Below are positions 6,512 to 63,483 of a DNA stretch of 64,000 nucleotides, piece after piece; the stretch's first letter is position 1, and each line of letters starts with the position of its first letter. The stretch comes from Candidatus Poribacteria bacterium. GTDB lineage: Bacteria; Poribacteria; WGA-4E; WGA-3G. Made by a program: the position numbers and the translations under genes. Below the pieces are notes generated by a model. It was not told where the DNA came from and ran no database searches. It saw nothing but the letters and a program-made list of their open reading frames with translations. Location: positions 572 to 64,571 of the forward strand of contig JAJDWA010000027.1 in the NCBI GenBank assembly GCA_022825825.1, in the 5' to 3' direction.

Positions 6512-7588
6512 CTATGTCCTCAAAGCATTTAAGAATGCCTCAACACTCGGAGTTTGCAATGCAAGAATAATCAGCTGCTTCAATTGTTCGAGATTAGAAA
6601 TTGATTTAAGTGCTTGTTCTATGTTATGTAAGTCGCTTTTAGGGAACTGCGTTGTAAGTATTGAGAGTATATTTTCCACGGTGGTTTCGCGCGCCCCTTG
6701 TTCAACCCCTTGTTCAACCCCTTGTTCAATACCTTGTTCGATTAGTACTTGTGCCATTGATTCTGCCATGGGAGTCACCTCTATTAGTTGTGTGTTTTGG
6801 TCTATGAGTTGGACGAGTTCTTCATGTTCTGCTGCGGGTCTGCGATGTAGTATCAATGAAATGAGATACTTTATCGCCTCTTCCATTTGTCCCTTCTGTC
6901 CCGGATCAAGTGTGCCAAGATAGCCAACTGTATCAACTAAGGCACGACTGATCGTTTCCTTATCTGCGTGTTCCTGCTGAAGCACGGTCATCAACCATCC
7001 GAAAGGATGATCAGTTTTCGTCAATGTTTCCGCATCTGCTTCCTTGACGCTGAGAAACAGTATCTCACAATGTGGTACAAACCGTGTGAGTTCATCTGGG
7101 ATGTCCATAATAGCGTCAAGCTGCAGGGGCGTTTTCCAAGTGCGATCACCCGTATAAAACACTATGGGAAGTATCGGTGTTAACCGCCGTTCTGCTTTCG
7201 GTACATTGTTTTGCTCCCATGTTCTGCGTTCTGTGTCCCATATCATCAGCATGTAAAACAACATTCGAAATCCCATTGTTTCGTCCACCGTGGACTGGTG
7301 TTCAATAAGAATATAGATAATGATCTCACCGGTTTGTCCTTCACTTTTAAACGGCACACGATAGACGAGGTCCGACTCCTGAGCTCTGAATATCTCCAGC
7401 ACAAAACTCCTCTTAATCTGGTCAATCCGCTCAAAATCCATCTTTTCTGATAGGTTGCCAGCGATGATCTGGACTAAGCATCGCAAGTTTTCTGTGTTTT
7501 GGAGCAACCATCTTGCGCTCTGATCAGGATAATGTTCAGTCTGTGTCGCCCAAAAATCAACGATTTGTTGTTCGTTTCTGTTTTCCAT
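6512..7588 (-). CDS. Rpn-family (YhgA-like, PD-(D/E)XK) recombination-promoting nuclease / putative transposase.
   Basis: N-terminal PDDEXK_7-like region (...IYILIEHQSTVD...). C-terminal DUF4351-like tail with EQGIEQGVEQGVEQG repeats, which are typical of Rpn proteins. Confidence 0.7.
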   Translation of the reverse strand: MENRNEQQIVDFWATQTEHYPDQSARWLLQNTENLRCLVQIIAGNLSEKMDFERIDQIKRSFVLEIFRAQESDLVYRVPFKSEGQTGEIIIYILIEHQSTVDETMGFRMLFYMLMIWDTERRTWEQNNVPKAERRLTPILPIVFYTGDRTWKTPLQLDAIMDIPDELTRFVPHCEILFLSVKEADAETLTKTDHPFGWLMTVLQQEHADKETISRALVDTVGYLGTLDPGQKGQMEEAIKYLISLILHRRPAAEHEELVQLIDQNTQLIEVTPMAESMAQVLIEQGIEQGVEQGVEQGARETTVENILSILTTQFPKSDLHNIEQALKSISNLEQLKQLIILALQTPSVEAFLNALRT

Positions 7589-10103: not shown

Positions 10104-10496
10104 CTATTCTTCTTCAGACGATTCAGATGTTTCTTCTGCGAGAAGTTCTCCCTGATCGTTTTCAGACTCGGGTATATTCTCATTTTCAAGTGTTTCGTCT
10201 GTTGTAATTTCTTCGTCAGGAAGCGGTTTTCCAAGTTTTTCGTAAGTAAATTTCTTCCAAATGCCTTCTTGCGAAAGCAGTCTTTTAGCTGTATCTGTTG
10301 GTTGCGCACCACGTCTTAACCACTTCAAAGCTTTCTCTTCGTCAATAACGACATCTGCTGGATCCGTTATCGGATTGTAATGACCGAGGCGTTCTAAAAA
10401 AACACCGTCTCTCTGGGCTCGTGCATCGGCTGCAACGAGCCGATAAAAAGGACGTTTTTTTCTACCGAGTCGTTGTAATCTAATTCTAACTGCCAA
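10104..10496 (-). CDS. rpsP: 30S ribosomal protein S16, probable TTG start, with an acidic C-terminal extension.
   Basis: [30 protein letters not shown] is a canonical S16 N-terminus. On the minus strand AGGAGG is followed 6 nt later by TTG at 10496..10494. The ORF-track upstream extension ([14 protein letters not shown]) has no RBS and is not S16-like. Confidence 0.85.
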
Positions 10497-10582
10497 AAAA
10501 TACCTCCTGGTACATATCGTATGGTTGGGACTATCCAAAATTGTTGTGAAATCTTAATTACTTCTTACTATCCATTACTGTG

Positions 10583-11971
10583 TTATTTACGCCGTTTACG
10601 TTTCCGAGGCTTTCTTTTTTTTCGCTGTGTTTGGGGGAGCATACCCATTTTGCCAGCAATCTTCGGCATTGCCATCGATGTTTGCTGGTTTAGCAGGTTA
10701 TTCATCATTCGGAGTTGGGAAACCAACTGATTAACCTGATTGACCGAAGTACCACTTCCTTTGGATATACGGACTTTCCTACTCCTGTCTAATAGAGCAG
10801 GATTCCCTCGTTCTGCAGGTGTCATAGACTGTATCATGGCTTTGGCATATTTGAGATTATTCTCATCCGGTTGCAGGTCTTTGACAGGTAACTGGTTTTT
10901 AAAAGGAACGAGATCCAACAATTGGTCGAGAGGGCCCATATTTTTAAGTTGTTCAAGCTGCGTGAGAAAATCGTTAAAATCTAACCCCTTTTTCTCTGTT
11001 AGCTTACGTTCCAATTCACGGGCTTGGTCTTCGTTGAAAACAGCCTCTGCTTTTTCCATCAGCGTTTGGAAATCGCCTTGTCCAATAATACGCGACGCCA
11101 TCCGTTCGGGATGAAATTCCTCAAGTGCAGCTGCTTCAATCTTTTCTCCGACACCGATGAATTTAATCGGTTTCTCTGTGACAGAACGGATAGAAAGTGC
11201 CGCACCACCCCGCGCGTCCCCATCCATTTTGGTCAAGATAACACCACTAATATCCAAATCGTTATTGAAATTCTCAGCAACGTTCACAGCGTCCTGACCT
11301 GTCATAGCATCAACAACAAGCAGAATCTCAGAAGGGTTCACCGCATCTTTGATACGCTGTAGTTCTTCCATCAATGTTTCATCAATGTGCAAACGACCTG
11401 CTGTATCTATGATAATGCAATCGTAACCGCGTTTTAGGGCGTCTTGCACCGAATCCTTAGCAATGTCAACAGGGGATACGTCAGTCCCTTGTGCAAAAAC
11501 AGGGGTTTCAATCTGTTCCCCAAGCACCTGCAGCTGCTTGATAGCAGCAGGACGATAAACATCAGCTGCAACGAGCATCGGATTGCGACCGTCCTTACGA
11601 AATTTGAGTGCCAATTTCGCTGCGACTGTAGTCTTACCAGCACCTTGCAAGCCTGCTAACATGACAACTGTCGGCCCGGTGGGCGCAATTTGAATCTTTG
11701 CAGATTCAATCCCCATCAACGTTGTCAATTCCTCTTTGATAATCTTTGCGATTTGAAGCTCAGGTGTGAGGCTGCCCATCACTTCCTGACCAAGCGCACG
11801 CACTTTGATATTTTCTATAAAATCGCGCGTGACCTTATAGTTTACGTCTGCCTCTAAAAAGGCGCGACGCACTTCACGCAGGGAATCAGAGATATTATTC
11901 TCTGTCAATTTTCCTTGACCTTTTATCTTTTTAAAGGTGCTTTGTAATCGTTCGCTTAGACTCTCAAACAT
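10583..11971 (-). CDS. ffh: Signal recognition particle protein Ffh.
   Basis: NG domain with GLQGAGKTT, DTAGRL, and an M-domain basic tail. Confidence 0.92.
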   Translation of the reverse strand: MFESLSERLQSTFKKIKGQGKLTENNISDSLREVRRAFLEADVNYKVTRDFIENIKVRALGQEVMGSLTPELQIAKIIKEELTTLMGIESAKIQIAPTGPTVVMLAGLQGAGKTTVAAKLALKFRKDGRNPMLVAADVYRPAAIKQLQVLGEQIETPVFAQGTDVSPVDIAKDSVQDALKRGYDCIIIDTAGRLHIDETLMEELQRIKDAVNPSEILLVVDAMTGQDAVNVAENFNNDLDISGVILTKMDGDARGGAALSIRSVTEKPIKFIGVGEKIEAAALEEFHPERMASRIIGQGDFQTLMEKAEAVFNEDQARELERKLTEKKGLDFNDFLTQLEQLKNMGPLDQLLDLVPFKNQLPVKDLQPDENNLKYAKAMIQSMTPAERGNPALLDRSRKVRISKGSGTSVNQVNQLVSQLRMMNNLLNQQTSMAMPKIAGKMGMLPQTQRKKRKPRKRKRRK

Positions 11972-11987
11972 GTCTACGCATCCTTTA

Positions 11988-12511
11988 TCAAAGGGATTTA
12001 GTTATAGAATTATAGCAGGTTTTATCGGTTCTGTCAAGTTTTTTTATATACCTGACAATAACTTCGCTGGTATTAATTAAAAGCGGATATCTCCTGGGTG
12101 CTACTTGTCCCGCGATGGTGATATAAGGATGTGAGATCCTTAATTTGCTTTCAAGGGTGATCGTACCTGAAACCGTGAATACGACTATCCGGGGTCCTTT
12201 TGTATCTATTGCCTCGCGCAAGCTGCCGGGTCCGGAGTCGTTCAGATTCGTCACCAAGATGACTTTGCCGCCTCTACCACCGCGAGTGATTGCGCCATAA
12301 CCTTCTGCACCCGGAAATGCGGGAACTTGCGGCGTCTCTGCTGCAAATCCGTTTGGAAGCAGTGTGAGGATGCCAAGACATATAAGCAGTAGGTATTTTA
12401 TTGTGTCAGGACTTACGCATTCCCCTGATAAGGGGGAGGGGGTTTAAAAGTCCCTATTTTGGTGTTTTTAACCCTCTAAATCTCCTTATCAGTGGGACTT
12501 AAAAAAATGCG
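11988..12511 (-). pseudogene. Truncated, frameshifted remnant of a secreted pectate-lyase-like (right-handed beta-helix) protein.
   Basis: The ORF 11988..12257 encodes ...[17 protein letters not shown]... and stops after about 90 aa. Upstream in the same frame is a signal peptide ([41 protein letters not shown]) with no in-frame start. The only ATG (12511..12509; MRKS then stop) is +1 out of frame and lies inside an inverted repeat. Confidence 0.45.
12407..12511. repeat. A roughly 105-bp nested inverted-repeat element.
   Basis: Outer arms tcaggacttacgcat / atgcgtaagtcctga. Inner arms ctgataagg / ccttatcag. A 19-nt copy of the outer arm (acaggacttacgcattttt) recurs at 23147-23165. Confidence 0.55.
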
Positions 12512-12604
12512 TAAGTCCTGAGTTGTTATATTTTATTCTAATTTGCTCCTTTAGTTTTAGCACTCGGATTTTCGTCTCCGTTCAGGACGCAGATATCATC
12601 GTTT

Positions 12605-19873: not shown

Positions 19874-19943
19874 TCCCATTATAATAAATCTGATATTTCT
19901 CAAAAGTTGTCATAAATCCATAGTTATCAAAGTTCTTTTGGGT

Positions 19944-20333
19944 TTAGTTCATGAAAATGCTCCATGATTTAAAGAACATCTGTCTTTGTCCAGTGAGTTG
20001 TAGTGGTCCTTGATGAAATGTGCGATGCTCTAAGATGCTCACCTTCAACAACATCAGATCGCTTATCACTTTTGTACCGAGATCCGCGGACGTCCCTTGC
20101 ATGCTTTCTAAACGCATAGCGGACAAATGCAAACTGGATTTCAACTGTCTCCAAAAATGTTCAATCCCGTGGTGTTGAGACCAAATCTTGAGTGCTTCAC
20201 AAGTGCATAGGGGTTTACCAAAGACCAAGAGTGTGCGTCCCTTTCCCATATCTAAAAAGAACAGCGCAATACACGCACCAAATGTTGGACTTGTCGCTTG
20301 CACACGACAGACAGGTTTATCACCACATCCCAT
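19944..20333 (-). pseudogene. C-terminal fragment of an IS4/ISAs1-superfamily DDE transposase (decayed IS).
   Basis: ...LKIWSQHHGIEHFWRQLKSSLHL...R.RS.QG... matches the conserved YxxRWxIE-x-FF-x-LK C-terminal block of DDE_Tnp_1 transposases. No intact N-terminal ORF lies upstream. An IS-type terminal repeat is at 20751-20780. Confidence 0.5.
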
Positions 20334-20750
20334 TGGCCTTTGCGGAGTTATCCGAATTTCTTATGAACCGAAAGTTTCTCAGTCGTCTGCTCTATGGTCA
20401 TTACATAGTTGTTTTTGCTATTGACAAACGGACAGCAAAAGTCCAGTGTCAACGATTTGCGATGTAATACGGTGAAAGCGTGAACAAAGAAGATGTTGAA
20501 AAAACTTGGTAGATTTGATAATCTGATGGTACCTGAGATATCCTCCTAACTATGGTCAAATGATGTTATTTTTTATAATTAGGATGACAACTCATGCGTT
20601 TAAAATCAAGTCAAATTTTCAAAATAAACGCATTTTCATGGCTTTAGACCCTCTTTGTATTGATGTTTAGTAGGTTCTGAGCAATTCAGATAAATATCAG
20701 ATAAATTAATCTTCATTCAAGGGGAATGCGTCTGTCCTATCAAAATTGAA

Positions 20751-20780
20751 TTCTTTTATCAAACTCACGTTATAGTAGAC
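20751..20780. repeat. Solo copy of the MITE/IS terminal repeat, adjacent to the transposase remnant.
   Basis: ttcttttatcaaactcacgttatagtagac is nearly identical to 35661-35695 (ttcttttatcaagctcacgttatagtatac). Confidence 0.55.
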
Positions 20781-23125: not shown

Positions 23126-23340
23126 CGAGAGGCACGAACAAAAAATACAGGACTTACGCATTTTTATAAAATGGTGTATACTATTCTATTATAACTGCAC
23201 GCTGTGGAATTTCGTTATCATGGAAAGTCAGCAACAGCTGAAAATGCAGAGCATGCAGTGAAAACCTTCAATATAGTTCGCTCGGCAATTCGAAAAGCGT
23301 TGAAATTGTCATAAAATAACTACAGAGGTTGGTTTAACCC

Positions 23341-25783: not shown

Positions 25784-26062
25784 CTATTCGGATGCTAAGG
25801 CGCGTATCTGATTAACTGTTTTGATAACTTCCTCATCAACGATACCAACTTCTTCCGCTGTGTTATAATGCCCCAAACCGAAACGGATAGCAATTACCAC
25901 CAATTTATTCGTAACTGTAACTCCCATTGAAACTAAAACATGTGATGGTGTAACAGATTCGGAATCACACGCTGAGCCTGTTGACATCGCAACACCCTTG
26001 AGTTCCATCAAAAGCGCATGACTTTGTACACCTGCGAAACAGAGATTTAGATTCCCTAACAA
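25784..26062 (-). pseudogene. C-terminal fragment of a cysteine desulfurase (IscS/NifS-like).
   Basis: ...LMELKGVAMSTGSACDSESVTPSHVLVSMG...IRFGLGHYNTAEEV matches the IscS/NifS C-terminal block that contains the active-site Cys loop (SACDS). Only 92 aa are present and no PLP domain lies upstream. Confidence 0.55.
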
Positions 26063-26249
26063 ACTCAGGTTATTTTAGGGTGTGTAAAGTTTTTGTAGAA
26101 CAGTGGTGTGTAAAGAAATGAGATGTTGCGAGGTATAAAAAATGGTATCCTATCCTAATAATATAGGAGAAGATACCAATGCTGAATATTATAGTCAAAT
26201 CCATAATTATTTGGACACTACGGTAGGTGCGATTTCCTAATCGCCCCCG

Positions 26250-26365
26250 ATGGGTCTGGGAAATGGTTATGAATGCCTTTTGGTGAATACGCGTATGGTA
26301 TTCGCCATGATTCCCCGTCCGGTATTCTGAATTGGTTAGGAAACCGCTCCTACCAAGGTTGTTCA
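26250..26365. repeat. Family-2 element fragment.
   Basis: Shares attcgccatgattc and ggttatgaatgcc with the 38662-38866 copy, then ttggttaggaaaccgctcctaccaagg. Confidence 0.45.
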
Positions 26366-29946: not shown

Positions 29947-29978
29947 GGTTTAACGTTTTCGCTTCATTAACTTGTATA

Positions 29979-30080
29979 GTGAATTATAAAAATAAATTGA
30001 CACTCTCATTCTCGGTAGGCGAGGTTTCCTAACCTCGCCAGTGTAGCGTGTTCAAGTAATTCTAAAACCTACTATATATG
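29979..30080. repeat. Family-2 MITE/REP-like element (short form).
   Basis: gtgaattataaaaataaattgacactctcattctcggtaggcgaggtttcctaacctcgcc...aaacctactatatatgg. Its ends match the 38662-38866 copy and the core hairpin ggcgaggtttcctaacctcgcc. Confidence 0.6.
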
Positions 30081-30197: not shown

Positions 30198-32561
30198 TTA
30201 TTCGGTATCCACATCTACATCCACATGCACATCGGGAGCGTCACTTGGGCGGTTAACCAGATCAGCGAGATATTCTGCGATTTTGTCTGTGATTTGTCCG
30301 GCATCTACATCGGCAAAATTAAAGAGTTCCTTAAGCATCGGTGAAATCGCACCTGTGTCAAGGAGCGTATTTGCAAGACGTCCCATGCTGCTTCGGTTGA
30401 TACCGCCTTTACCATCGTTGTTGCCCATATCAAGAATTTTGATGCTGTCAATTTGCTCTACAGGACGCATCATTTGTTCAATAATGTCAGGGGCTTCTTC
30501 AATTAATTCTAAGATTGCTTCTTGGACCAGGACACGTTGTTCGGCAACGTTACGGGCTTCATATTCCGCCATTTCACCTTGTGCTTTCGCTCGTGCTTCG
30601 GACAACACAGCATCAGCAAGACGTTCAATCGGTTGTGCTTGTGCTTCGGCACCGAGGATTGCAACATCACGTTGCCATTCAGCACCTTTTATCTGTTCGG
30701 TAGCAGTAACATTGACTTCCGCCTCCATACGTTCTGCTTCAGCCTCTAACTGCTCTTTTTCTGCAAGTGCAGTAAGCTGCTGTTTATTGGCAACATCAAT
30801 CTTTCTATCTTCGTCAGTGAGAGCGACACGTAATTCTTGACCGATACGGGATTGCTCGACCGTCAACATTTTATTAATTTCAGTAAGTTCCACCTGTTTG
30901 TTTTGGTCGATTTGTGCGGTTTCAACAACGAGGTTCTTCTCAATCTCACGTTGTTGCACCTGTTGTTCTTGTGCGAATTTCGCAGTTTGCACAGTCAACT
31001 CTCGTTCAACATCTCGCAACTCAACACCCTCTTCCTGAGCGATGCGCGCTTTTTCTACGAAGAGTTGCTTTTCAAACTCACGCTCTTGTACCTGTTGTTC
31101 CATACCGATTTTGTTGACATCAACCGCTAACGTCTTGGCGATCTCTGTGAGTTCCACCTGTTTGTTTTGGTCGATTTGTGCGGTTTCAACAACGAGGTTC
31201 TTCTCAATCTCACGTTGTTGCACCTGTTGTTCTTGTGCGAATTTCGCAGTTTGCACAATTAAGTCTCGCTCAACATCTCGCAACTGAACACCCTCTTCCT
31301 GAGCGATGCGGGCTTTTTCTACCATGAGCTGCTTCTCTATCTCGCGAACTTCAATTGTCTGTTCCTGTTCAATTTTTTCCATTTGAACAGTAAGATGTTG
31401 TGCGATTTCAGCGAGTTGAACGACTTTAGTTTGGTCGATCTGTGCGGTTTCAACAACGAGGTTCTTCTCAATCTCACGCTGCTGCACCTGTTGTTCTTGT
31501 GCAAATGTTGCTGTTTGAACCTCCAATTCTAACTCAACTTCTCGTAATTGGACACCCTCTTCTTGAGAAATACGTGCGCGTTCAACTTCCAACTTCATTT
31601 CGTATTCACGTTCTTGAACGCTCTGCTCCATCTCAAATTGGAACTTTATAGTTTCGGCTTCCCGTTCCGCAGCATAGATAGCGATATTTTTCTGCTGGTC
31701 GGATTCTCCCCAGGCCTGTTCCTGCTCTAATTCAAGTTCTCGGAGACGCGCTTCAACATTAATTTGTACGATGGCAACCTCTTTCGCTTTGATGGCAGCC
31801 TCTTTATCTCGCTCTTGTTCAGCAGTAATTTCAGTGATTTCGCGGATACCGACAGCATCAAATCGGTTGTCTGGACTTAGTATATCAATGGGGGTTTGAT
31901 CAACCCGAATAATGGAAACAGTATCGAGTGTCAAACCATTATCGAGTTTCAGATTTTCTCCACAAGTATCTTGAACTTTGTCTGCGAATTCGACACGTTT
32001 TTGTAGAAGATCCTGAATTTCACTTTCAGCGGCAACGCTTCTTATGGCACCGTCCAACATCGGTTCAATTAATTCGCGAATAGTTTCAGGCGTCATGGAT
32101 TTATCGCCGAGGGCTTGGGCAGCCTTTAAAATGTCGTCCTCAATTGGATCAACCTTAATATAAAAAACGACTTCAACATCAGCACGGTTGAAGTCTTTGG
32201 TAATCAAGGAATCGGTGGTTTCTCGGACCACCTCAATTCGCATGGTGTTGAGAGATATCTCTTTAATTTCATGAATAATCGTGTTAACCCAGAGACCACT
32301 GGTAATACGAATCTTTTCCCTTGCACCACCTGTTCTAACCAAGGCTATATCAGCTTTTGGTATCCTATAGCGGATAACAGAACCTATAAAAGCAGCCAAA
32401 GCTCCAAATAAGACAACCGCAATAAGGCCCATCCAGCGCAAGGTATTAGGTTCATTGGCTTGGTTTTCACCATCACCATCCGGCATCAGAAAATTATAGG
32501 CGAAATATCCGATGGCACATACAACAACAATTAGAAATACAACAACAAGAATGAGACGCAT
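30198..32561 (-). CDS. Flotillin/SPFH (band-7) family protein with an extended coiled-coil built from 88-aa tandem repeats.
   Basis: N-terminal TM segments followed by an SPFH domain (ADIALVRTGGAREKI...). Three nearly identical 88-aa repeats (...VQTAKFAQEQQVQQREIEKNLVVETAQIDQNKQVELTEI...) and a C-terminal flotillin-like tail. Confidence 0.8.
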   Translation of the reverse strand: MRLILVVVFLIVVVCAIGYFAYNFLMPDGDGENQANEPNTLRWMGLIAVVLFGALAAFIGSVIRYRIPKADIALVRTGGAREKIRITSGLWVNTIIHEIKEISLNTMRIEVVRETTDSLITKDFNRADVEVVFYIKVDPIEDDILKAAQALGDKSMTPETIRELIEPMLDGAIRSVAAESEIQDLLQKRVEFADKVQDTCGENLKLDNGLTLDTVSIIRVDQTPIDILSPDNRFDAVGIREITEITAEQERDKEAAIKAKEVAIVQINVEARLRELELEQEQAWGESDQQKNIAIYAAEREAETIKFQFEMEQSVQEREYEMKLEVERARISQEEGVQLREVELELEVQTATFAQEQQVQQREIEKNLVVETAQIDQTKVVQLAEIAQHLTVQMEKIEQEQTIEVREIEKQLMVEKARIAQEEGVQLRDVERDLIVQTAKFAQEQQVQQREIEKNLVVETAQIDQNKQVELTEIAKTLAVDVNKIGMEQQVQEREFEKQLFVEKARIAQEEGVELRDVERELTVQTAKFAQEQQVQQREIEKNLVVETAQIDQNKQVELTEINKMLTVEQSRIGQELRVALTDEDRKIDVANKQQLTALAEKEQLEAEAERMEAEVNVTATEQIKGAEWQRDVAILGAEAQAQPIERLADAVLSEARAKAQGEMAEYEARNVAEQRVLVQEAILELIEEAPDIIEQMMRPVEQIDSIKILDMGNNDGKGGINRSSMGRLANTLLDTGAISPMLKELFNFADVDAGQITDKIAEYLADLVNRPSDAPDVHVDVDVDTE
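30888..31680. repeat. Three tandem, near-identical 264-bp repeats inside the flotillin gene.
   Basis: The block gttccacctgtttgttttggtcgatttgtgcggtttcaacaacgaggttcttctcaatctcacgttgttgcacctgttgttcttgtgcgaatttcgcagtttgcac recurs at about 30888, 31152 and 31416. The period is 264 bp, which equals 88 codons, so it is in-frame. Confidence 0.85.
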
Positions 32562-35405: not shown

Positions 35406-35448
35406 AGCAGGATCCCTACAATTCAGGACTTCTAAAAGCCAATTATTT

Positions 35449-35694
35449 TATAGTATAACGTGAGTTTGATAAATCCCGTAGGCTTCTAAGTCCGATTTAG
35501 GACCTCTCTCTGGTAGGCGCGTTTAGAAAACGCGCCTACCAAGGGGTGTGGCCGATAAATTGACGCATAAGGGTTTCGCTGCGCTTTATCCAACGGACTA
35601 TACTCAATCTAATTACTAAACTCACGTTATTATACTAAAGATGCGTCCATCCTATTAAAATAAAATTCTTTTATCAAGCTCACGTTATAGTATA
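35449..35694. mobile_element. A roughly 245-bp MITE-like element with 25-bp terminal inverted repeats (copy b).
   Basis: Left end ttatagtataacgtgagtttgataaa (35449-35474). Right end tttatcaagctcacgttatagtata (35670-35694) is its near-perfect reverse complement. Inside are the hairpin ggtaggcgcgtttagaaaacgcgcctacc and a third TIR-like copy at about 35620. Confidence 0.6.
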
Positions 35695-35698
35695 CACG

Positions 35699-36535
35699 TT
35701 AAAGTTCAACAAAATCAGCATTTACGCGATGCGGAATCACACCAGCTTCATGACCACGGTTAAGCAATTCCTGTACCGCTTTTCTACCACTTTCTCCATA
35801 ATCCAAAGTATAATCATTAACATACATTCCAACGAACTTATCCGCGAGGTCGGTTTCCATGTCTCGTGCATAAGTCATTGCATATTCAAGTCCGCTCTCC
35901 CGATGTTCAAGTGAATATTGAATACTTTGTTTTAACAAAGATGTAATAGAGCGAATTTTCTCGATTCCGAGGTTGCGGCGGATAACATTTGCCCCAAGAG
36001 GTAGCGGCAGCCCAGTTTCTTCGTGCCACCATTCACCTAAATCAACTATTTTATGAAGCCCCTCGCGTGTGTAGGTCAGTTGTCCCTCATGAATGATGAG
36101 TCCTGCGTCTACTTCGCCTTTTTGGACAGCCTCAATAATCTTGTCGAAGCGGCGCGTTTCTGTTTCAACATCGGCGTGGAAGAGTTTCATCGTCAAATAG
36201 GCAGTAGTCATCTCTCCCGGTATTGCTATCCGTTTCCCAGTAAGAGTTTTCATTGGTGTTTTGGAAACGATTAGAGGCCCGTACTTATCCCCAATGCTTG
36301 CACCACAAGGCATGATTGCGTAATTATCTGCAACATACGCATAGGCGTGAACGGAAATCGCTGTAACTTCAAGTTCTGCGGCCAGTGCGCGTTGATTCAA
36401 AGTTTCAATGTCTTCTATAACGTGGAGAATTTCAAAAGGTGTCGTTGGAATAATCCCTTTTGCAAGGGCATAGAACATGAACGCATCATCAGAATCTGGA
36501 CTATGCCCAATCCGAATCTTCTCAGTCTCTGACAT
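35699..36535 (-). CDS. mqnD: Menaquinone (futalosine pathway) MqnA/MqnD-family protein, probably 1,4-dihydroxy-6-naphthoate synthase.
   Basis: RIGHSPDSDDAFMFYALAKG... is MqnA/MqnD periplasmic-binding-like fold signature. Length 278 aa. Confidence 0.65.
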   Translation of the reverse strand: MSETEKIRIGHSPDSDDAFMFYALAKGIIPTTPFEILHVIEDIETLNQRALAAELEVTAISVHAYAYVADNYAIMPCGASIGDKYGPLIVSKTPMKTLTGKRIAIPGEMTTAYLTMKLFHADVETETRRFDKIIEAVQKGEVDAGLIIHEGQLTYTREGLHKIVDLGEWWHEETGLPLPLGANVIRRNLGIEKIRSITSLLKQSIQYSLEHRESGLEYAMTYARDMETDLADKFVGMYVNDYTLDYGESGRKAVQELLNRGHEAGVIPHRVNADFVEL

Positions 36536-36589
36536 TAAGTGTTCCTTTCTAACATTGTTATTTCAATATGTTTATGCTATCATGATAAC

Positions 36590-37525
36590 ATGACGGCACA
36601 AAAATATCTGTATCTCATGGCGATTCCGTCTCAACTTGCAGAGCTAGTATCAGCAGAATCGGTTGCTTTGACGGGCGCTGCTCCCGATGAATATGGTATC
36701 ACAGTTTCGAATACTTGTGTTGATGTGCGACGAGGTGCCTATCTCAAAAGTTGTACTGAAGTACTCTTTGAAGTTGGAAACGTTGCTGAACTCCTTCCGA
36801 AAATTCGGTCTGCAGATTTACATGCAGACGGATTTCGGGTGTCAGTTGTTAAAAAGCCTCGCAGCCTGAATGTTGACTCAATGGCATTAGCAGGTCAGAT
36901 AGGGAGTTTCATTGGTGGCAAACCCAATTTATCGTCTCCGCAAATTGTCTTTTTAACTGTTGTTACGCCCCAAAAAATTTGGTTCGGTAGACTCCTCTCC
37001 GAATCTGATGGTATGTGGGTTGCACACGATCAGCGTCCACATGTAACTTCCAGTTCGCTACCTGCAAGGTTGGCTCGTGTTCTCGTTAACCTTGTGGCTT
37101 CTCCCGGTGAACATCTACTTGATCCGTGTTGTGGCACCGGCACGATTGTAATGTCGGCTGCACATTGCGATGTGCAAGCGTCGGGTTACGATATCAATCC
37201 GCGCATGGTAGGTGCAACAACTAAGAATCTTAAACATTACGGCCTCATGGCTGACGTTCAATTAAGCGATGCGCGGACGATCCAACAAAAGTTCGATGTA
37301 GTTGCTACGGATCTGCCTTACGGCATAAGTCTTGTTAAAGATACTACCGCGACCATAGAAATTCTGGCAAATCTACAGACTTGCGCTCCCAAAGCTGGAT
37401 TTATCGATATCCGCGATCTCAGCCAACCACTTGGTGATTTAGGGTATCAGGTAGAGAATGTCATACCTGTTCCGAAGCTACGTCTTGTTCGGCGTATTTT
37501 TATTACTTCCAGCGGCGATCAATAA
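36590..37525 (+). CDS. THUMP-domain-like class-I SAM-dependent RNA (N2-guanine/N6-adenine type) methyltransferase.
   Basis: LLDPCCGTGTIVMSAA (motif I) and DVVATDLPYG (DPPY-type motif IV). The N-terminal half is THUMP-like. ATG at 36590. Confidence 0.65.
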   Translation: MTAQKYLYLMAIPSQLAELVSAESVALTGAAPDEYGITVSNTCVDVRRGAYLKSCTEVLFEVGNVAELLPKIRSADLHADGFRVSVVKKPRSLNVDSMALAGQIGSFIGGKPNLSSPQIVFLTVVTPQKIWFGRLLSESDGMWVAHDQRPHVTSSSLPARLARVLVNLVASPGEHLLDPCCGTGTIVMSAAHCDVQASGYDINPRMVGATTKNLKHYGLMADVQLSDARTIQQKFDVVATDLPYGISLVKDTTATIEILANLQTCAPKAGFIDIRDLSQPLGDLGYQVENVIPVPKLRLVRRIFITSSGDQ

Positions 37526-37950
37526 TCGTCAATATTTTCATAAAAATCTGTTTCTGGTAAGTACTCGCCTTCATCAAGTTCATCTTCTTCATAGTCTTCG
37601 TAGTCCTCTAAACTCAAAAGTGAGTCGAGTTCACTGAGATTGTCTATGTAGATTTTGCAAATCCATCCATCACCTTCCGGTACACTGTTAATAAGTTCAA
37701 TATCTTCCTCAAGTGCTGTATTGACTTCATGGATTTCTCCGGCGACAGGCGCGTAAAGATAAAAGTTCCCTCCGGTTTCAGTTTCAATTCTGCCTATAAT
37801 TTCACCTTGCTCGCATTCTTGTTCAGGGGACACATCGACAAAAATAACCCCACCGTACAGGTGTTGCGCGCGTTCTGTAATGCCAATAGTTCCCTCTGTG
37901 TCAACAACCTCAATCCATTCATGCGTAGTTGTATATTTCACTGTGCTCAA
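37519..37950 (-). CDS. GcvH-like (glycine-cleavage H / lipoyl-domain fold) protein that lacks the lipoyl-lysine; acidic C-terminal tail.
   Basis: It aligns with GcvH (YTTTHEWIEV..., YAPVAGEIHEVNTAL, GDGWICKI). The ESVKA lipoylation site is replaced by RIETETGG. C-terminal tail DYEDYEEDELDEGEY. Confidence 0.7.
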   Translation of the reverse strand: MSTVKYTTTHEWIEVVDTEGTIGITERAQHLYGGVIFVDVSPEQECEQGEIIGRIETETGGNFYLYAPVAGEIHEVNTALEEDIELINSVPEGDGWICKIYIDNLSELDSLLSLEDYEDYEEDELDEGEYLPETDFYENIDDY

Positions 37951-37977
37951 CGTGCATTCCTCCGATAAGCTAAAACC

Positions 37978-38580
37978 TTACTGTAACTTTGTTTCTGTAA
38001 TTCCAATACTTTGAAGCTGTGCTTTGAAAGTTTTTAACTCTTTTTGCTGAATCTGAATTGCTATGTTTGGGGTTGGATCATATTCAATATTTGTTACTTG
38101 ACCTCCCAAGCGTTTACATAGTGTGACAACTGTGCCTATATGAGAGTAGGGGACATTTACATGTAAGTTGTGATAAAAAGTCAGGGTTTCTAAAGTTGCA
38201 TTTTCAAGACAGGCGCGTGCACATGTGCCATAAGCTCTAATCAATCCGCCAATCCCAAGATTAATTCCACCATAATACCGTGCAACAACGATTATAGTAT
38301 TAGATAATCCGGTGGCACGAATTGCCCCGAGAATAGGAGGACCTGCCGAATGTATCGGTTCACCTGCATCTGTTGAATATTCCAACTTTTCATCACCGCT
38401 ACCAAGACTATAAGCATAACAGTAGTGCGTGGCTTGACGAATCCGTGCCCTGATATCAGCAACAAACTTTTTGACTGAATCGTGGCTATTTACTGCTGAT
38501 GCTTCACCGAAAAACCGTGATTTTTTGACTACATGTTTAGCGGTAGCGATTCCGACAATTGTTTGATACTCCCCTGACAT
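37978..38580 (-). CDS. YigZ / IMPACT-family (UPF0029) protein.
   Basis: KKSRFFGEASAV...AYSLG....STDAGEP..SAGPPIL is the IMPACT N-domain signature. Start at MSGEYQ (38580). The ORF-track N-terminal extension would overlap a MITE. Confidence 0.7.
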   Translation of the reverse strand: MSGEYQTIVGIATAKHVVKKSRFFGEASAVNSHDSVKKFVADIRARIRQATHYCYAYSLGSGDEKLEYSTDAGEPIHSAGPPILGAIRATGLSNTIIVVARYYGGINLGIGGLIRAYGTCARACLENATLETLTFYHNLHVNVPYSHIGTVVTLCKRLGGQVTNIEYDPTPNIAIQIQQKELKTFKAQLQSIGITETKLQ

Positions 38581-38661
38581 AATACTTGTTTTTGTAATAT
38601 TGGATACTGTATCTGTATAAAAGTTTGAAAGTTTTCGATAAATGATATGCTTAAGATTATG

Positions 38662-38866
38662 GTGAATTATAAAAATAAATAGGCACTTTCGTCTCACGGT
38701 AGGCGGGGAATGCCTAAAGACGAATACGCCAAATCAACGGTATGAATGCCATTTAGGCATTCCCCGGGCATTCGCCATGATTCATACCTTTGATTTCTTG
38801 GTTTGGAGGTTTCCTAACCTCGTTGGCACAGAGCGTCCAAATAATTCTAAAATCTACCATAAATGT
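38662..38866. repeat. Family-2 MITE/REP-like element (long form).
   Basis: It starts gtgaattataaaaataaat, contains the ggtaggcgggg...ccccg hairpins and a ggtttcctaacc core, and ends aaatctaccataaatg. A short-form copy is at 29979-30080 and a reverse-orientation copy at 46399-46475. Confidence 0.6.
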
Positions 38867-38895
38867 TCAAAACAGTTGGATGTATTAAAGATCGC

Positions 38896-40050
38896 TTAAA
38901 AGTTCTGTCCGATTGAAAAGGTGTAGACAGCGGGGCCTTGGACGATGTGGATGCGTTCATCCTCAGACACACTTGGCTTGAATTGGGGGGTATAAGCGGC
39001 ATTTAATATAATGTTTCCGAACCGCACGCCAAATCCCAAGCAGAGACCTTCTGCCTTCCAATTTCGCTCTTCCATTTCAAGTGTAGCATCTTCCAAAAGG
39101 AAAACCGAGGCGTAACGTTTTTCAGTGTCCCTAATATATCCGATTCTGCCGCCAATGCGGTTGCGATACCAAATCTCAGTTCCAAGATTGATTCGGGCTC
39201 CATCACTAAAAGGCAGATGTAAATCTAAACCGAGCCGTAAAGACATGTTCGAAATTTCGCGTTGATAAGTTATACCGGCAGTGAAATCGCGGCGGATTTT
39301 ATCTGGGATAGTGGGGTCCACAAAGGACAAACCATTACTCAAATTGCGAACGACAATGCCTGCCTGAAATGCGTTTCCAAATTTCTGAATAAGTCCAACA
39401 TTATATGCGTAACCATGTCCAAAATGCTCGGTTTCCGACGGATCGGTGACTTTAGACCGTAACCACTTCGCATCAAATCCGACAACAGTGTTTCCAAAAC
39501 AATTTACACCGTAACCGATCCCGATAGCAAGGTTATTTTCTGGAAAACTATTGAGTGCTTTCCCTTCGTGGTTGACACGGCGAAAGGCACCCTCATGTGC
39601 TGTGGATAGAGCGACACCTATCGTGCCGAACTTGCCTATTGGAAATGCCCAATTCAATGTTTCAATACCGGAAGCACGCTGTTCATACTGACTATAATCC
39701 TCGTAGCTTGCATCGAAATTCGGTTTTGAAAGAAGAGCAATAGTTCGTGGAAAACGGGTCATGTGAATTACAAATCGGTTTCCTTTAGTAACACTGATAC
39801 CAGCAGGGTTGCTGCCGAGTGCGCTTGCGCCACCGGTTGTCCCAACAAAACTACCACCCATGCCACGATGTTCAGCACCGATCAACTGTTTTAGAAACCT
39901 GTCTGCTTCTGCTGTTGTGGTTGCTTTTGATGCAATTCCATTCGAAATGGAAAAGCAGAAAACAAGGTAAAATATATAAATCAATAAAGAGGTTTGTAAA
40001 CGTTGTGATAATAGGGTTCGCGGGTGTAAAAAATGCAAATTTCTCTTCAC
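38896..40050 (-). CDS. Putative outer-membrane beta-barrel protein (possibly PorV/PorQ-like T9SS component).
   Basis: Signal peptide, alternating amphipathic beta-strand pattern, Gly/aromatic-rich, terminal ...FSIGQNF with a C-terminal Phe. The PorV-like assignment is a guess from length (about 380 aa) and T9SS cargo nearby. Confidence 0.45.
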   Translation of the reverse strand: MKRNLHFLHPRTLLSQRLQTSLLIYIFYLVFCFSISNGIASKATTTAEADRFLKQLIGAEHRGMGGSFVGTTGGASALGSNPAGISVTKGNRFVIHMTRFPRTIALLSKPNFDASYEDYSQYEQRASGIETLNWAFPIGKFGTIGVALSTAHEGAFRRVNHEGKALNSFPENNLAIGIGYGVNCFGNTVVGFDAKWLRSKVTDPSETEHFGHGYAYNVGLIQKFGNAFQAGIVVRNLSNGLSFVDPTIPDKIRRDFTAGITYQREISNMSLRLGLDLHLPFSDGARINLGTEIWYRNRIGGRIGYIRDTEKRYASVFLLEDATLEMEERNWKAEGLCLGFGVRFGNIILNAAYTPQFKPSVSEDERIHIVQGPAVYTFSIGQNF

Positions 40051-40142
40051 TTTTCTTACTTACTCCAAAATATGTGTGTAGATATATCTGTGGCCACAGT
40101 GGGACGAACTTTTACACAGAGACAAAAGCACACAACCTAAAA

Positions 40143-40343
40143 ATAACGCGAGTTTGATAAATCAGATTTTGTATTCGGTGCAGTTAGGAAACCGCCAAAT
40201 CAAGAAATCAACGGTATGAACGCCATTTAGGCGTTCCCCGGGTATGAATGCTATATAGCATTCCCCGCCTACCAGGTCTATGAGAGTAATATTTTTGGAA
40301 AAATGAAGTTCATATATCTATTATCATACTCACGTTAAAAATA
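40143..40343. mobile_element. A roughly 200-bp MITE-like element (copy c) with the same TIR family as copy b.
   Basis: Left ataacgcgagtttgataaat (40143-40162). Right ttatcatactcacgttaaaaata (40321-40343). The interior shares about 50 bp with the 38662-38866 element (ccaaatcaa...cggtatgaa.gccatttaggc.ttccccgg). Confidence 0.55.
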
Positions 40344-46398: not shown

Positions 46399-46475
46399 TT
46401 ATGGTAGATTTTAGATATATTTATACATTGCTGCTCTGGCGAGGTTAGGAAACCTCGCCTACCGTGGGGTGGAAG
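46399..46475. repeat. Family-2 element, reverse orientation.
   Basis: tattatggtagattttagat... then ggcgaggttaggaaacctcgcctaccgtggggtgg; this is the reverse complement of the 29979-30080 hairpin and end. Confidence 0.55.
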
Positions 46476-46523
46476 TGTATATTAAATTTTAGAAATCACC
46501 GTATAACAAGTTAGGGAGTTTAT

Positions 46524-60074: not shown

Positions 60075-61073
60075 ATGTTATCACATAACAAGATTGCAGA
60101 GGCGGGCGGTTGGTGTTACCTCCTTACTATCCTCACAAGCATATTACTATTCGTTTCTTGTGTGCCCACGACTCTTAATTCGACAGGTTCGGCACCAGTT
60201 CCAGCGAACGATGGATATGCTGAGATAAAAGAGATTGCGGGAAAACTTTCAATAACCAGCGAACCGGTTACTGCAGAGATGTTAATTGAGAAATCAAGAG
60301 CTTTTATCAAAGCACACCCGAAATATAAACAGGTGGGTGAGGTCTACCATATCCTCGGAACTACTTTAGTTCAGTTTAATCGGACTGAAGAAGGCATTGA
60401 GGTTTTAGAAGAGCTTATTAGGTACTACCCGCTTGCTACTTCCGTTGAACCGTGTTTGTTAACATTGGGATTGGCTTACGACAAAGCCAACATGCATGAC
60501 AAAGCAGATGTAGTCTATGAAAAACTGGTAAATACGTCAAAGTACAGTAACGGAACGTATGCCAAAACCGCTCGGCAATTGTTACAAACGGATAAGACTG
60601 ATCGCAAAGGTGCGCTTGAAGGATTACCTGATGGATCCGGCAGAACTAATTTTGTTGGTCAAGCGGCTATGGATTTTCAGGTAACAGATCTGAATGGTGA
60701 ACCGTTATCGTTAGAAAAATTTAAAGGGCAGGTTGTGCTTCTTGATTTTTGGGCATCCTGGTGTGGCCCTTGCCTTGCAGAGATGCCAAACGTGAAGCGA
60801 ACATATCAAAAGTATAAAAATCAGAAGTTTCAGATTATCGGTATCAGTTTAGATAGCGGGAAAGCACCACTTAAGGATTATATTGAAAAAGAAGGAATTA
60901 TGTGGCCGCAATATTACGACAACAGCAGGCAGATTTCGAATATGTACCAGGTCCAATCCATTCCGTCAACTTTTCTGATTGATGGTGACGGAATTATCCG
61001 CAAAACGAACCTCCGCGGAAATGCCCTTGAGGTTGCCGTCGCTCAACTTGTGCAAGAGAATATGGCTCGATAA
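60075..61073 (+). CDS. Lipoprotein-like TPR-like domain plus TlpA/ResA-type thioredoxin (redoxin) domain protein.
   Basis: VLLDFWASWCGPCLAEMPNVKRTYQKYKNQKFQIIGISLD has a CxxC (WCGPC) active site. The N-terminal roughly 150 aa are helical-repeat. Confidence 0.75.
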   Translation: MLSHNKIAEAGGWCYLLTILTSILLFVSCVPTTLNSTGSAPVPANDGYAEIKEIAGKLSITSEPVTAEMLIEKSRAFIKAHPKYKQVGEVYHILGTTLVQFNRTEEGIEVLEELIRYYPLATSVEPCLLTLGLAYDKANMHDKADVVYEKLVNTSKYSNGTYAKTARQLLQTDKTDRKGALEGLPDGSGRTNFVGQAAMDFQVTDLNGEPLSLEKFKGQVVLLDFWASWCGPCLAEMPNVKRTYQKYKNQKFQIIGISLDSGKAPLKDYIEKEGIMWPQYYDNSRQISNMYQVQSIPSTFLIDGDGIIRKTNLRGNALEVAVAQLVQENMAR

Positions 61074-61152
61074 ATGACGAATTGGATGGACACAGTCGCT
61101 GTTCAACAATCAAAAGTACGTTCATGGTTTCTACAACCTAAGGAGGTATACG

Positions 61153-63483
61153 ATGTTTATCCGAAATCAAACAACGTTCGATCACAAACAAAATAGTAGT
61201 GTCTCTGTTTGCAACATTAGTATTCTTGCGATTGTTGTGCTGCTCGGTTTCTTTACTAATCTTGCCAGTGTTGATTCGGCGGAAACAGGTCCAACTGTTA
61301 GTCCAAAGGAAATAAGAGGCAAATATGATGAAATTAAGACGATTGCTAAGAAACTTACTAATCAAAATGCGCCGGAAGAATTAGAGAAGTTAGTTGAAAA
61401 GTCAACAGATTTTATTGCAGCGTTTCCAGAATACAAACGCATAGATGAGGTCTACTATCGCCTTGGCAACGCTTCAGTTCGGTTGGGCCGTGTTGAAGCA
61501 GGTATTAAAGTCTTTGAAAAATTAGACGAGAAACATCCAGAGGCGCGTTGGATTGCACCAAGTCTGTTAGAATTGGGTATGGCTTATGACAAACTCGGCA
61601 AACATGATAAAGCAAATGAAACCTATAACAAACTGATCAACCACCCAAAGTATGGTGATCGATCTTATGCGCAACGTGCCAAAGAGATTCTTGAACAGGA
61701 TATAGCCTCGCGAAAGGGTGAATTACCCAAATCTCCAGGAACAATCTCAAGTCCGAGTGAGTGGATCGGTAAACCTGCCCCAGATTTTCAGGTGAAGGAT
61801 TTGAGAGGTAAAGAACTCTCCTTGAAAAAATATAGAGGTCAAGTTGTGCTTGTTGACTTTTGGGCAACGTGGTGCGGGCCGTGTCTCAAGGAGTTACCAA
61901 ACGTTAAAAGAACTTACGAAAAGTACAAAGATCAGAAGTTTCAGATAATCGGAATTAGTCTTGACAGGTCAAAACAATCACTTGAGACGTTCATTGAAAG
62001 AAAAAATCTTGCATGGATTCACTATTGGGATCAAAGTCAAAAGATTACGTCTCAATATGGGGTACGGGGAATTCCATCAATCTTTCTGATTGACGGTGAA
62101 GGTATCATCCGTAAGACAAACCTCCATGGACATTCGCTTGAAACTGCCGTTGCTGAATTGGTAGGCGAGAATCTTACGAAACTTGCCGATACTTCCGCCA
62201 AAGCATCTGAATCCAATTCACAATCGAAGTCAATTCCCGCAACAAAACTTATTAAACCGAGCCCTACTCCTCAAAAAAGTGAATCGCTTGAGTCTCTCAA
62301 AGCAAGAGTGAATGAGTGGGTCGGTAAACCTGCCCCAGATTTTCAGGTGGTGGATTTGAAAGGTGAAGAACTTTCGTTGGAGAAATTCCGGGGACAGATT
62401 GTGCTTCTTGATTTCTGGGCAACATGGTGTGGTCCCTGTATAGCCGAGATGCCCAAAGTTAAGCAGACTTATGAAAAGTACAAAGATCAGAAGTTTCAGA
62501 TTATTGGCATTAGCTCAGACAGATCAAAACAACCGCTTGAAGCTTATATTGAGAAAGAGGGACTTGATTGGATTCACACTTGGGATGAAAATCGTGATCT
62601 GAGAAATCTATACGGGATAATAGGAATCCCAACAGCTTTTTTAATTGACGGTGAAGGTGTAATCCGAAAGGCGAGTCTCGGTGGTTTTGATGTTGAATCT
62701 GCCGTTGCCGAGTTGGTTAAGGAAAATCTTGCCAAACCTGCTAACCCCACTCCACCTGAAAAAACTCCTTCCGATCCTCCATCAGATAACCAAAAAGCAG
62801 ATGCTAAAGCAAAAGAGATTATTGACGCTGCTGTGGCTGCACACGGTGGACTTGAGAAACTGCAAGCAGTGAAAAATATTGTAATGGAATCTCGCAGCTT
62901 TGAACACTTTCCAGATGGTTCCATGCAGGATGAGGGACGGAATAAAACCTATTATTATGCTAACAAATTCCGCAACGATTGGCACAGAAGCAACAGTGTA
63001 GAAAGTATAATCTTTAGTAGCGATTCTCTGTTTCTGCTAACAGATGGAGTGGTCAAACCAATTTCAGAGAAGGCGGCTAAATCTTTTATTGATTACTTCA
63101 AAGATAGTATTTTTCGAGAACCGATTTGGCTTCTGACAAAACTCTCACAAAACGCTATACCCGTTGAATACGTGGGGACAGAGGATGTCAAAGGTATCCC
63201 CGCATCCGTTCTTCTCGTTATACAGCCTTCTGGCAAAAAACTCAAAATCTTCATTAGTAAGGAAACTCACTATGTGGTGCAGTTTAGTTATAGTCTTGAA
63301 ATAGTAAAGGAAAAGGAAAATGTGGTAGCATTATTAGACAACTATCGCGATGTAGATGGTATTAAAATTGCACACCATCGTACCACAAAATCCTTTGAAC
63401 ATCGGGAAACTTTAATCACAGATGTTAAATTTAATGCTGAAATTGATGAAGCACTGTTCAGTCCTAAAGAGTCGAATGAATAG
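61153..63483 (+). CDS. Paralogous protein with a TPR-like domain, two tandem TlpA-type thioredoxin domains, and a C-terminal roughly 250-aa unknown domain.
   Basis: Two WCGPC sites (VVLVDFWATWCGPCLKELPNVKRTYEKYKDQKFQIIGISLD and IVLLDFWATWCGPCIAEMPKVKQTYEKYKDQKFQIIGISSD). The N-terminal domain is about 40% identical to the 60075 protein. Confidence 0.75.
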   Translation: MFIRNQTTFDHKQNSSVSVCNISILAIVVLLGFFTNLASVDSAETGPTVSPKEIRGKYDEIKTIAKKLTNQNAPEELEKLVEKSTDFIAAFPEYKRIDEVYYRLGNASVRLGRVEAGIKVFEKLDEKHPEARWIAPSLLELGMAYDKLGKHDKANETYNKLINHPKYGDRSYAQRAKEILEQDIASRKGELPKSPGTISSPSEWIGKPAPDFQVKDLRGKELSLKKYRGQVVLVDFWATWCGPCLKELPNVKRTYEKYKDQKFQIIGISLDRSKQSLETFIERKNLAWIHYWDQSQKITSQYGVRGIPSIFLIDGEGIIRKTNLHGHSLETAVAELVGENLTKLADTSAKASESNSQSKSIPATKLIKPSPTPQKSESLESLKARVNEWVGKPAPDFQVVDLKGEELSLEKFRGQIVLLDFWATWCGPCIAEMPKVKQTYEKYKDQKFQIIGISSDRSKQPLEAYIEKEGLDWIHTWDENRDLRNLYGIIGIPTAFLIDGEGVIRKASLGGFDVESAVAELVKENLAKPANPTPPEKTPSDPPSDNQKADAKAKEIIDAAVAAHGGLEKLQAVKNIVMESRSFEHFPDGSMQDEGRNKTYYYANKFRNDWHRSNSVESIIFSSDSLFLLTDGVVKPISEKAAKSFIDYFKDSIFREPIWLLTKLSQNAIPVEYVGTEDVKGIPASVLLVIQPSGKKLKIFISKETHYVVQFSYSLEIVKEKENVVALLDNYRDVDGIKIAHHRTTKSFEHRETLITDVKFNAEIDEALFSPKESNE

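Follow-up and report, generated by a model that had tools for sequence, protein, structure and literature searches.

Short inverted-repeat elements of a Candidatus Poribacteria genome share their 17-bp ends with an IS982-family insertion sequence of related genomes

The window analysed here is a 64-kb stretch (64,000 nucleotides) of contig JAJDWA010000027.1, assembly GCA_022825825.1, from Candidatus Poribacteria, a sponge symbiont; this placement follows from homologues found for the flanking genes and for a transposase fragment, and from the titles of the loci recovered in our scan, which speak against the cyanobacterial origin that WD40 repeats and hairpins might suggest. The window corresponds to scaffold_27 of KELL22-1 (ENA ERZ23491491). 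It contains two complete short repeat elements and one orphan end of the same family, all of the kind known as miniature inverted-repeat transposable elements (MITEs). The first element lies at site 1, the spacer between the stop codon (35699-35701) of a 278-aa VitK2_biosynth (menaquinone-biosynthesis) gene and a 67-aa gene, the second at site 2, the spacer between AcpS and a 384-aa gene, and the orphan end adjoins an internally deleted insertion sequence (IS) that includes the transposase fragment. No open reading frame (ORF) of 50 aa or more was found inside either full element. Looked up by exact protein sequence, the flanking genes gave the source contig and otherwise contigs broken by MITEs, with no match for AcpS. 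A preliminary description had delimited the elements as 35449-35694 and 40143-40343 and traced them to the IS beside the orphan end; the sequences are present at these positions and exceed chance expectation, but both boundaries and parentage need correction, with the elements refined to 35456-35687 and 40144-40337:

35451-35455, unstranded: left copy of the target-site duplication TAGTA, a perfect 5-bp repeat abutting the outer pair of ends
35456-35687, unstranded: composite MITE of 232 bp, made up of a type d unit, an 11-bp linker and a type c right end
35456-35472, plus strand: left terminal inverted repeat, TAACGTGAGTTTGATAA, 17/17 to the consensus
35512-35540, unstranded: internal hairpin GGTAGGCGCGTTT-AGA-AAACGCGCCTACC, a variant of the window-wide GGTAGGCG...CCTACC module
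35613-35629, minus strand: internal degenerate third copy of the end, TAACGTGAGTTTAGTAA, 15/17; right end of the type d unit
35671-35687, minus strand: right terminal inverted repeat, TAACGTGAGCTTGATAA, 16/17
35688-35692, unstranded: right copy of TAGTA, 6 nt from the stop codon
40140-40143 and 40338-40341, unstranded: flanking AAAA direct repeat
40144-40337, unstranded: type b MITE of 194 bp, a 124-bp consensus MITE plus an extra 72-bp hairpin module
40144-40160, plus strand, and 40321-40337, minus strand: terminal repeats of the type b MITE, each a 16/17 motif match
40196-40267 (element positions 53-124), unstranded: inserted hairpin module of 72 bp with two GAAYGC...GCRTTC stem-loops
20707-20772, minus strand: orphan right end of a type c MITE, with its terminal repeat at 20756-20772 and no partner end

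The terminal repeat was initially taken to be 25 bp long. This 25-mer, TATAGTATAACGTGAGTTTGATAAA, is present at 35449-35473 (plus strand) and, with 2 mismatches, at 35670-35694 and 20755-20779 (both minus strand), where shuffled sequences lead one to expect none; its 18-mer core has six matches in the window against 0.14 expected, including 40144-40161 (plus), 40320-40337 (minus) and the internal 35612-35629 (minus). We scanned a genome collection, one genome per species, with TAACGYGAGYTTGATAA and recovered at least 119 loci; the end alignments and pair counts that follow rest on the matches listed, and L-numbers label comparison loci from other genomes. Across 192 ends from the window and the listed Poribacteria loci, only 17 bp, TAACGTGAGTTTGATAA, are conserved, and conservation ends sharply there; position counts beyond the 17-mer show an A+T bias only, with T/A favoured at -5/-4. 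Because the pattern searched for included the first two bases of the 17-mer, the conservation of these two is biased, but the boundary is set independently by the duplications: perfect abutting direct repeats of 3-5 bp accompany 37 of the 54 plus/minus end pairs (69%), compared to 5.7% in a mismatched-flank control, in which a 5-bp match arises with a frequency of 0.7%. The outer 7 bp of the first element are not common to the second, and five of them are accounted for by the TAGTA duplication. Each full window element thus has the 17-bp repeat at either end, every copy with 0-1 mismatch, flanked by TAGTA in the first case and AAAA in the second. Reading TA as the duplication and AC as the tip, as is typical of IS982, was rejected, since the 3-5 bp direct repeats abut TA itself. 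Weaker motif matches at 26056 and at three positions in 30937-31201, with 3 mismatches each, were judged to be chance or coding repeats.

The motif is almost restricted to metagenome-assembled genomes (MAGs) of Candidatus Poribacteria, with a Poribacteria title on 99 of the 119 loci among the matches listed. Related end pairs mostly span 124-177 bp, against 232 and 194 bp for the two window elements, and fall into at least four subfamilies that share the 17-bp ends only, their interiors being mosaics of hairpin modules and not deletion derivatives of an IS. Outside Poribacteria, an Anaerolineae MAG (L062, 1074-2852) contains a related motif, TAACCTGAGTTCGATAA, that forms several end pairs spaced 78-180 bp apart, which may represent a sister MITE family in another phylum.

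Several end pairs among the matches listed lie about 1 kb apart, and these pairs delimit transposase-encoding ISs of 1016-1051 bp. In L108 (1260-2277), a 1018-bp IS is bounded by TAACGTGAGTTTGATAA and TAACGTGAGTTTGGAAA, and its 299-aa ORF scores 243.4 bits against NF033520 ('IS982 family transposase'), above the cut-off of 130, and 215.7 bits against PF13612. Copies with the motif at both ends at the same spacing are found in L005, L007 and L044 as well, with transposases 54-70% identical to that of L108 by tblastn; the L005 and L007 copies are flanked by the duplications CCTA and TTA. In the same tblastn search uninterrupted matches over residues 1-298 were obtained in L044, L018 and L067/L069, and decayed IS982 copies in L005, L007, L010 and others. 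Full-length ISs with these ends therefore exist, as the preliminary description had suggested looking for, but they belong to a family other than that of the neighbouring transposase, and all of them reside in other Poribacteria genomes. Among the copies with an uninterrupted transposase match, the one at L067 3403-4517 (likewise in L069) is without its own right end and abuts a 124-bp type b MITE, the far end of which could serve as the right end of that IS.

We consider it highly probable that the two window elements and the orphan end are non-autonomous MITEs bearing the 17-bp ends of a ~1-kb IS982-family IS that is present in other Poribacteria genomes. Under this model, an IS982-family DDE transposase supplied in trans would recognise the 17-bp ends and move the element, and insertion into A+T-rich intergenic DNA would duplicate 3-5 bp of the target.

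The first element is compound. The subterminal regions on both sides of 35456-35629 are those of type d elements (L048, L099, L095), a type c right end resembling 20726-20772, L023 and L033 makes up 35641-35687, and the junction between the type d and type c parts contains CTCACGTTATTATACTAAAGATGCGTCC. Because it is the outer ends that carry the perfect 5-bp duplication, a composite moving as one unit by its outermost ends is favoured; it is probably a fusion of two subfamily units that moved as one piece, the mode of formation being something that we infer. Nesting of a type d element inside a type c element was rejected, as there is no second left end upstream of 35456. It is possible, if somewhat doubtful, that two events took place at this site instead, with a complete type d MITE (35456-35629) inserting next to an orphan type c end (35641-35687) that was already in place and TAGTA being a coincidence of an A+T-rich, TA-preferring target. 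The presence of both type d subterminal regions would fit such a history, as would the similar orphan type c end that stands alone at 20707-20772 and is likewise followed by TAGTA, the agreement at 7 of 8 positions between the inner-pair flanks TTATAGTA and TTATACTA, and the general preference for T/A at -5/-4. However, the inner pair 35456-35629 has no canonical duplication of the perfect 3-5 bp type seen in the family, whereas the outer pair has a perfect 5-bp one (null frequency 0.7%), and relatives are without the entire 237 bp, not part of it.

The occupancy of site 1 varies between relatives. The spacer measures 293 bp in the window and ~67 bp in the syntenic locus L126 (82% protein identity), while L210 has other repeats and no TAACGTGAG element there. 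In L209 the orthologous spacer (10168-10668) is 499 bp long and contains, at the same nucleotide position (10178-10333), an element of a different subfamily with the same ends and the duplication TAG, directly followed by another type of repeat or MITE, which marks the position just past the stop codon as a hot spot of recurrent insertion. On the minus strand at 35445-35472, the left repeat and its flank give a weak sigma-70-like match directed outward (TTATCA-16 nt-TAAAAT, 9/12, a consensus match only), which faces the 67-aa gene at 35405-35202.

At site 2 a spacer of 308 bp in the window contrasts with orthologous spacers of 117 bp in L211 and 133 bp in L209, a gap that corresponds to the element. 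Both window elements are thus absent from relatives' spacers, and at both sites the differences in spacer size correspond to the element plus its duplication, with base-level precision limited by intergenic divergence. Together with the duplications, these empty orthologous sites bear out the original proposal that the repeats are MITEs with IS-type terminal inverted repeats. Positions 1-52 and 125-194 of the second element are 83-94% identical to 124-bp elements in many Poribacteria MAGs, and the 72-bp module interrupts the GGTGCGG/CCGCACC hairpin of the type b consensus, the 124-bp copies of which are without it. The elements had also been described as composites, and this holds for both, the second by virtue of its extra module and the first as a junction of two subfamilies.

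The 72-bp module recurs at 38731-38818, inside a different MITE family, and in L048, L036, L029 and L081, outside the family with the 17-bp ends. That hairpin modules are common to MITE families with different ends is the more unusual aspect of these elements. We offer only as a tentative and rather unlikely suggestion that the modules (40196-40267; GGTAGGCG...CCTACC; GAATGCC-ATTTA-GGCATTC) form a separate mobile or recombining layer, inserting into or being exchanged between MITE families with unrelated ends (TAACGTGAG, TTATGGTAGATTTTAG). If this were true, Poribacteria MITEs would be assembled combinatorially from modules that have their own means of propagation, for which the small dispersed repeats of Nostoc would offer a parallel.

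Other repeats are present in the window. Copies of another MITE-like family, which has TTATGGTAGATTTTAGAATTATTTGGAC-type ends, lie at 38656-38867, 29975-30080, 46399-46503 and ~26189-26360, and contain the same internal hairpin modules (GGTTAGGAAACC..., AAATCAACGGTATGAATGCCATTTAGGCATTCCCCGG) as 40144-40337. Coding-region repeats occupy 2580-4170, 30856-31640, 6694-6739 and 60637-62741; they comprise a 126-bp periodic WD40-like array, three 264-bp tandem units in the ORF 30198-32561, a 12-bp tandem CCCCTTGTTCAA and three copies of a ~290-bp unit.

Could another transposase be responsible for moving the MITEs, with the IS982 copies having acquired the same ends through insertion into, or recombination with, MITE ends? 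The L067 copy, which abuts a type b MITE in place of its own right end, illustrates how this might come about, and the MITE interiors share nothing with the IS past the 17 bp. We nevertheless regard this as improbable, given that the motif stands at both ends, and at the expected spacing, in four or more IS copies from different genomes (L108, L005, L007 and L044), and that L005 and L007 show the same kind of 3-4 bp duplication.

The parentage originally proposed for the MITEs was the IS adjoining the orphan end:

19890-20700, minus strand: internally deleted IS701/IS4-like IS, 811 bp versus 1358 bp for a full copy; contains the ORF 19944-20333

The ORF, which had been described as a C-terminal fragment of a DDE transposase, is real and lies on the minus strand, and taken alone the 129-aa fragment gives only a weak, sub-threshold match to the C-terminal part of DDE_Tnp_1 in Pfam and NCBIfam scans. 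Its database homologues are nearly all short (107-224 aa), and placing it in IS701/IS4 required longer homologues; the family matches are weak and none is to IS982. A BLASTP comparison of this transposase with the IS982-family transposase detected no similarity (E = 0.4). The IS has its own inverted repeats, CTGATATTT(A/C)TC..., and its own duplication, ATAAAT, at 19884-19889 and 20701-20706. A full 1358-bp copy exists in L001 (2314-3671; ends CTGAC...ATCAG, duplication TTCTTAA), and the window IS matches positions 1-279 and 832-1357 of this copy at 84%, showing that both ends are intact and that 552 bp have been deleted internally. No TAACGTGAG motif was found in the L001 or L002 loci of this IS. 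The orphan end, in turn, is 100% identical to L023 over 54 bp and 89% identical to L033 over 76 bp, and IS fragment and orphan end are arranged in the same way in L003, a close strain (98% identity). Once the IS is taken out, its flanks rejoin into sequence homologous to the interior of the L033 MITE. Therefore, the orphan end at 20707-20772 is a separate remnant at the inner edge of which the IS landed, and the transposase fragment 19944-20333 is a bystander belonging to an unrelated IS701/IS4-like element. The solo end reported earlier is accordingly genuine, with its terminal repeat at 20756-20772, but it merely adjoins that IS and is not its terminus. Descent of the MITEs from the IS family of this fragment, with 20755-20779 as the terminus of that IS, is then very hard to credit: proximity speaks for it (the solo end lies ~55 bp from the end of the IS), while the separate inverted repeats and duplication, the match to both ends of the L001 copy with no TAACGTGAG there, the family assignment and the rejoined flanks all speak against it. 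As a side observation, a recurring AGGACTTACGCAT / GGGGAATGCGTC motif at 12395-12527, 20720-20751 and 23141-23169 ties the type c interior to other short inverted repeats.

Finally, as RNA both full elements fold strongly (35456-35687 at -75.7 kcal/mol, z = -5.6; 40144-40337, z = -5.6), both stand no more than ~20 nt downstream of a stop codon within co-directional gene pairs, and the spacer of the first is independently occupied in L209, all of which would suit immobile, host-selected structural or regulatory hairpins (like repetitive extragenic palindromes) rather than transposon derivatives; this explanation is scarcely tenable, as target-site duplications are strongly enriched, presence and absence vary between orthologous sites, a transposase-encoding IS has identical ends, a terminator scan of the window elements found no terminator-like site and an Rfam search of them found no family.

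Several observations weigh against an IS982-related origin for the window elements. The copies are somewhat diverged, at 83-94% identity to relatives and with up to 2 mismatches per end; the AAAA duplication of the second element is of low complexity; and the intergenic sequence of relatives is too diverged to yield a single-base empty site for site 1 in L126. The ends start with TAAC (tip TA, with AC at positions 3-4) and not with the AC typical of IS982, and the duplications abut TAAC. Since tblastn detected no IS982-family transposase within the window, current mobility in this strain is unproven, and mobilisation in trans by such a transposase is what we infer from the shared ends.

As mobile elements these are real but of a fairly ordinary kind, and no new mechanism is implied. 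What the analysis provides is the correct parent family and the correct boundaries for an abundant, Poribacteria-restricted repeat. This repeat breaks short-read assemblies, with contigs L124, L125 and L207 ending at these elements, and spacers just past stop codons have been repeatedly colonised in different lineages. Its recognition should be of use in annotating sponge-symbiont genomes, and it is a possible marker for strain typing and genome plasticity.

Members of the IS982 family are ~1 kb long, with inverted repeats and direct repeats of variable length (PMC7335449). Of the 69 registered members 57 start with AC and 12 deviate, and whether they transpose by cut-and-paste or copy-and-paste is unsettled (PMC7335449, Fayad et al. 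2020). The L108 partner resembles them in its length of ~1 kb, its single ~300-aa DDE transposase scoring above the cut-off, its inverted repeats and its variable-length (3-5 bp) direct repeats, but its ends begin with TAAC instead of AC. The window elements encode nothing and are satellites of the family, not members. A literature search found no paper joining Poribacteria with miniature inverted-repeat elements. MITEs of cyanobacteria (Nezha), and small dispersed repeats nested in Nostoc MITEs, were reportedly described by Zhou et al. and by Elhai et al. in 2008. These are likewise small, have terminal inverted repeats and duplications, have ends matched to an IS and harbour short hairpin repeats; the Poribacteria elements differ from them in IS family, host phylum and sequence, and independent movement of their modules is a possibility only.

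The closest precedent comes from the Cardinium endosymbiont cOegib, in which MITECca01 derives from ISCca4, a member of the IS982 family. It is a lineage-specific, non-coding MITE of ~240 bp whose maintenance is ascribed to intact parental copies (PMC9769881). The host belongs to Bacteroidota rather than Poribacteria, and the Poribacteria window contains no parental IS. Moreover, MITECca01 retains short stretches of its parent IS, whereas the Poribacteria elements share the 17-bp ends only, their interiors being unrelated hairpin mosaics in several subfamilies. Similar to MITECca01, the elements described here are short and non-coding, have inverted repeats that closely resemble the ends of an IS982-family IS, are lineage-specific and reside in a symbiont genome, and they represent a second documented case of MITEs with IS982-type ends.

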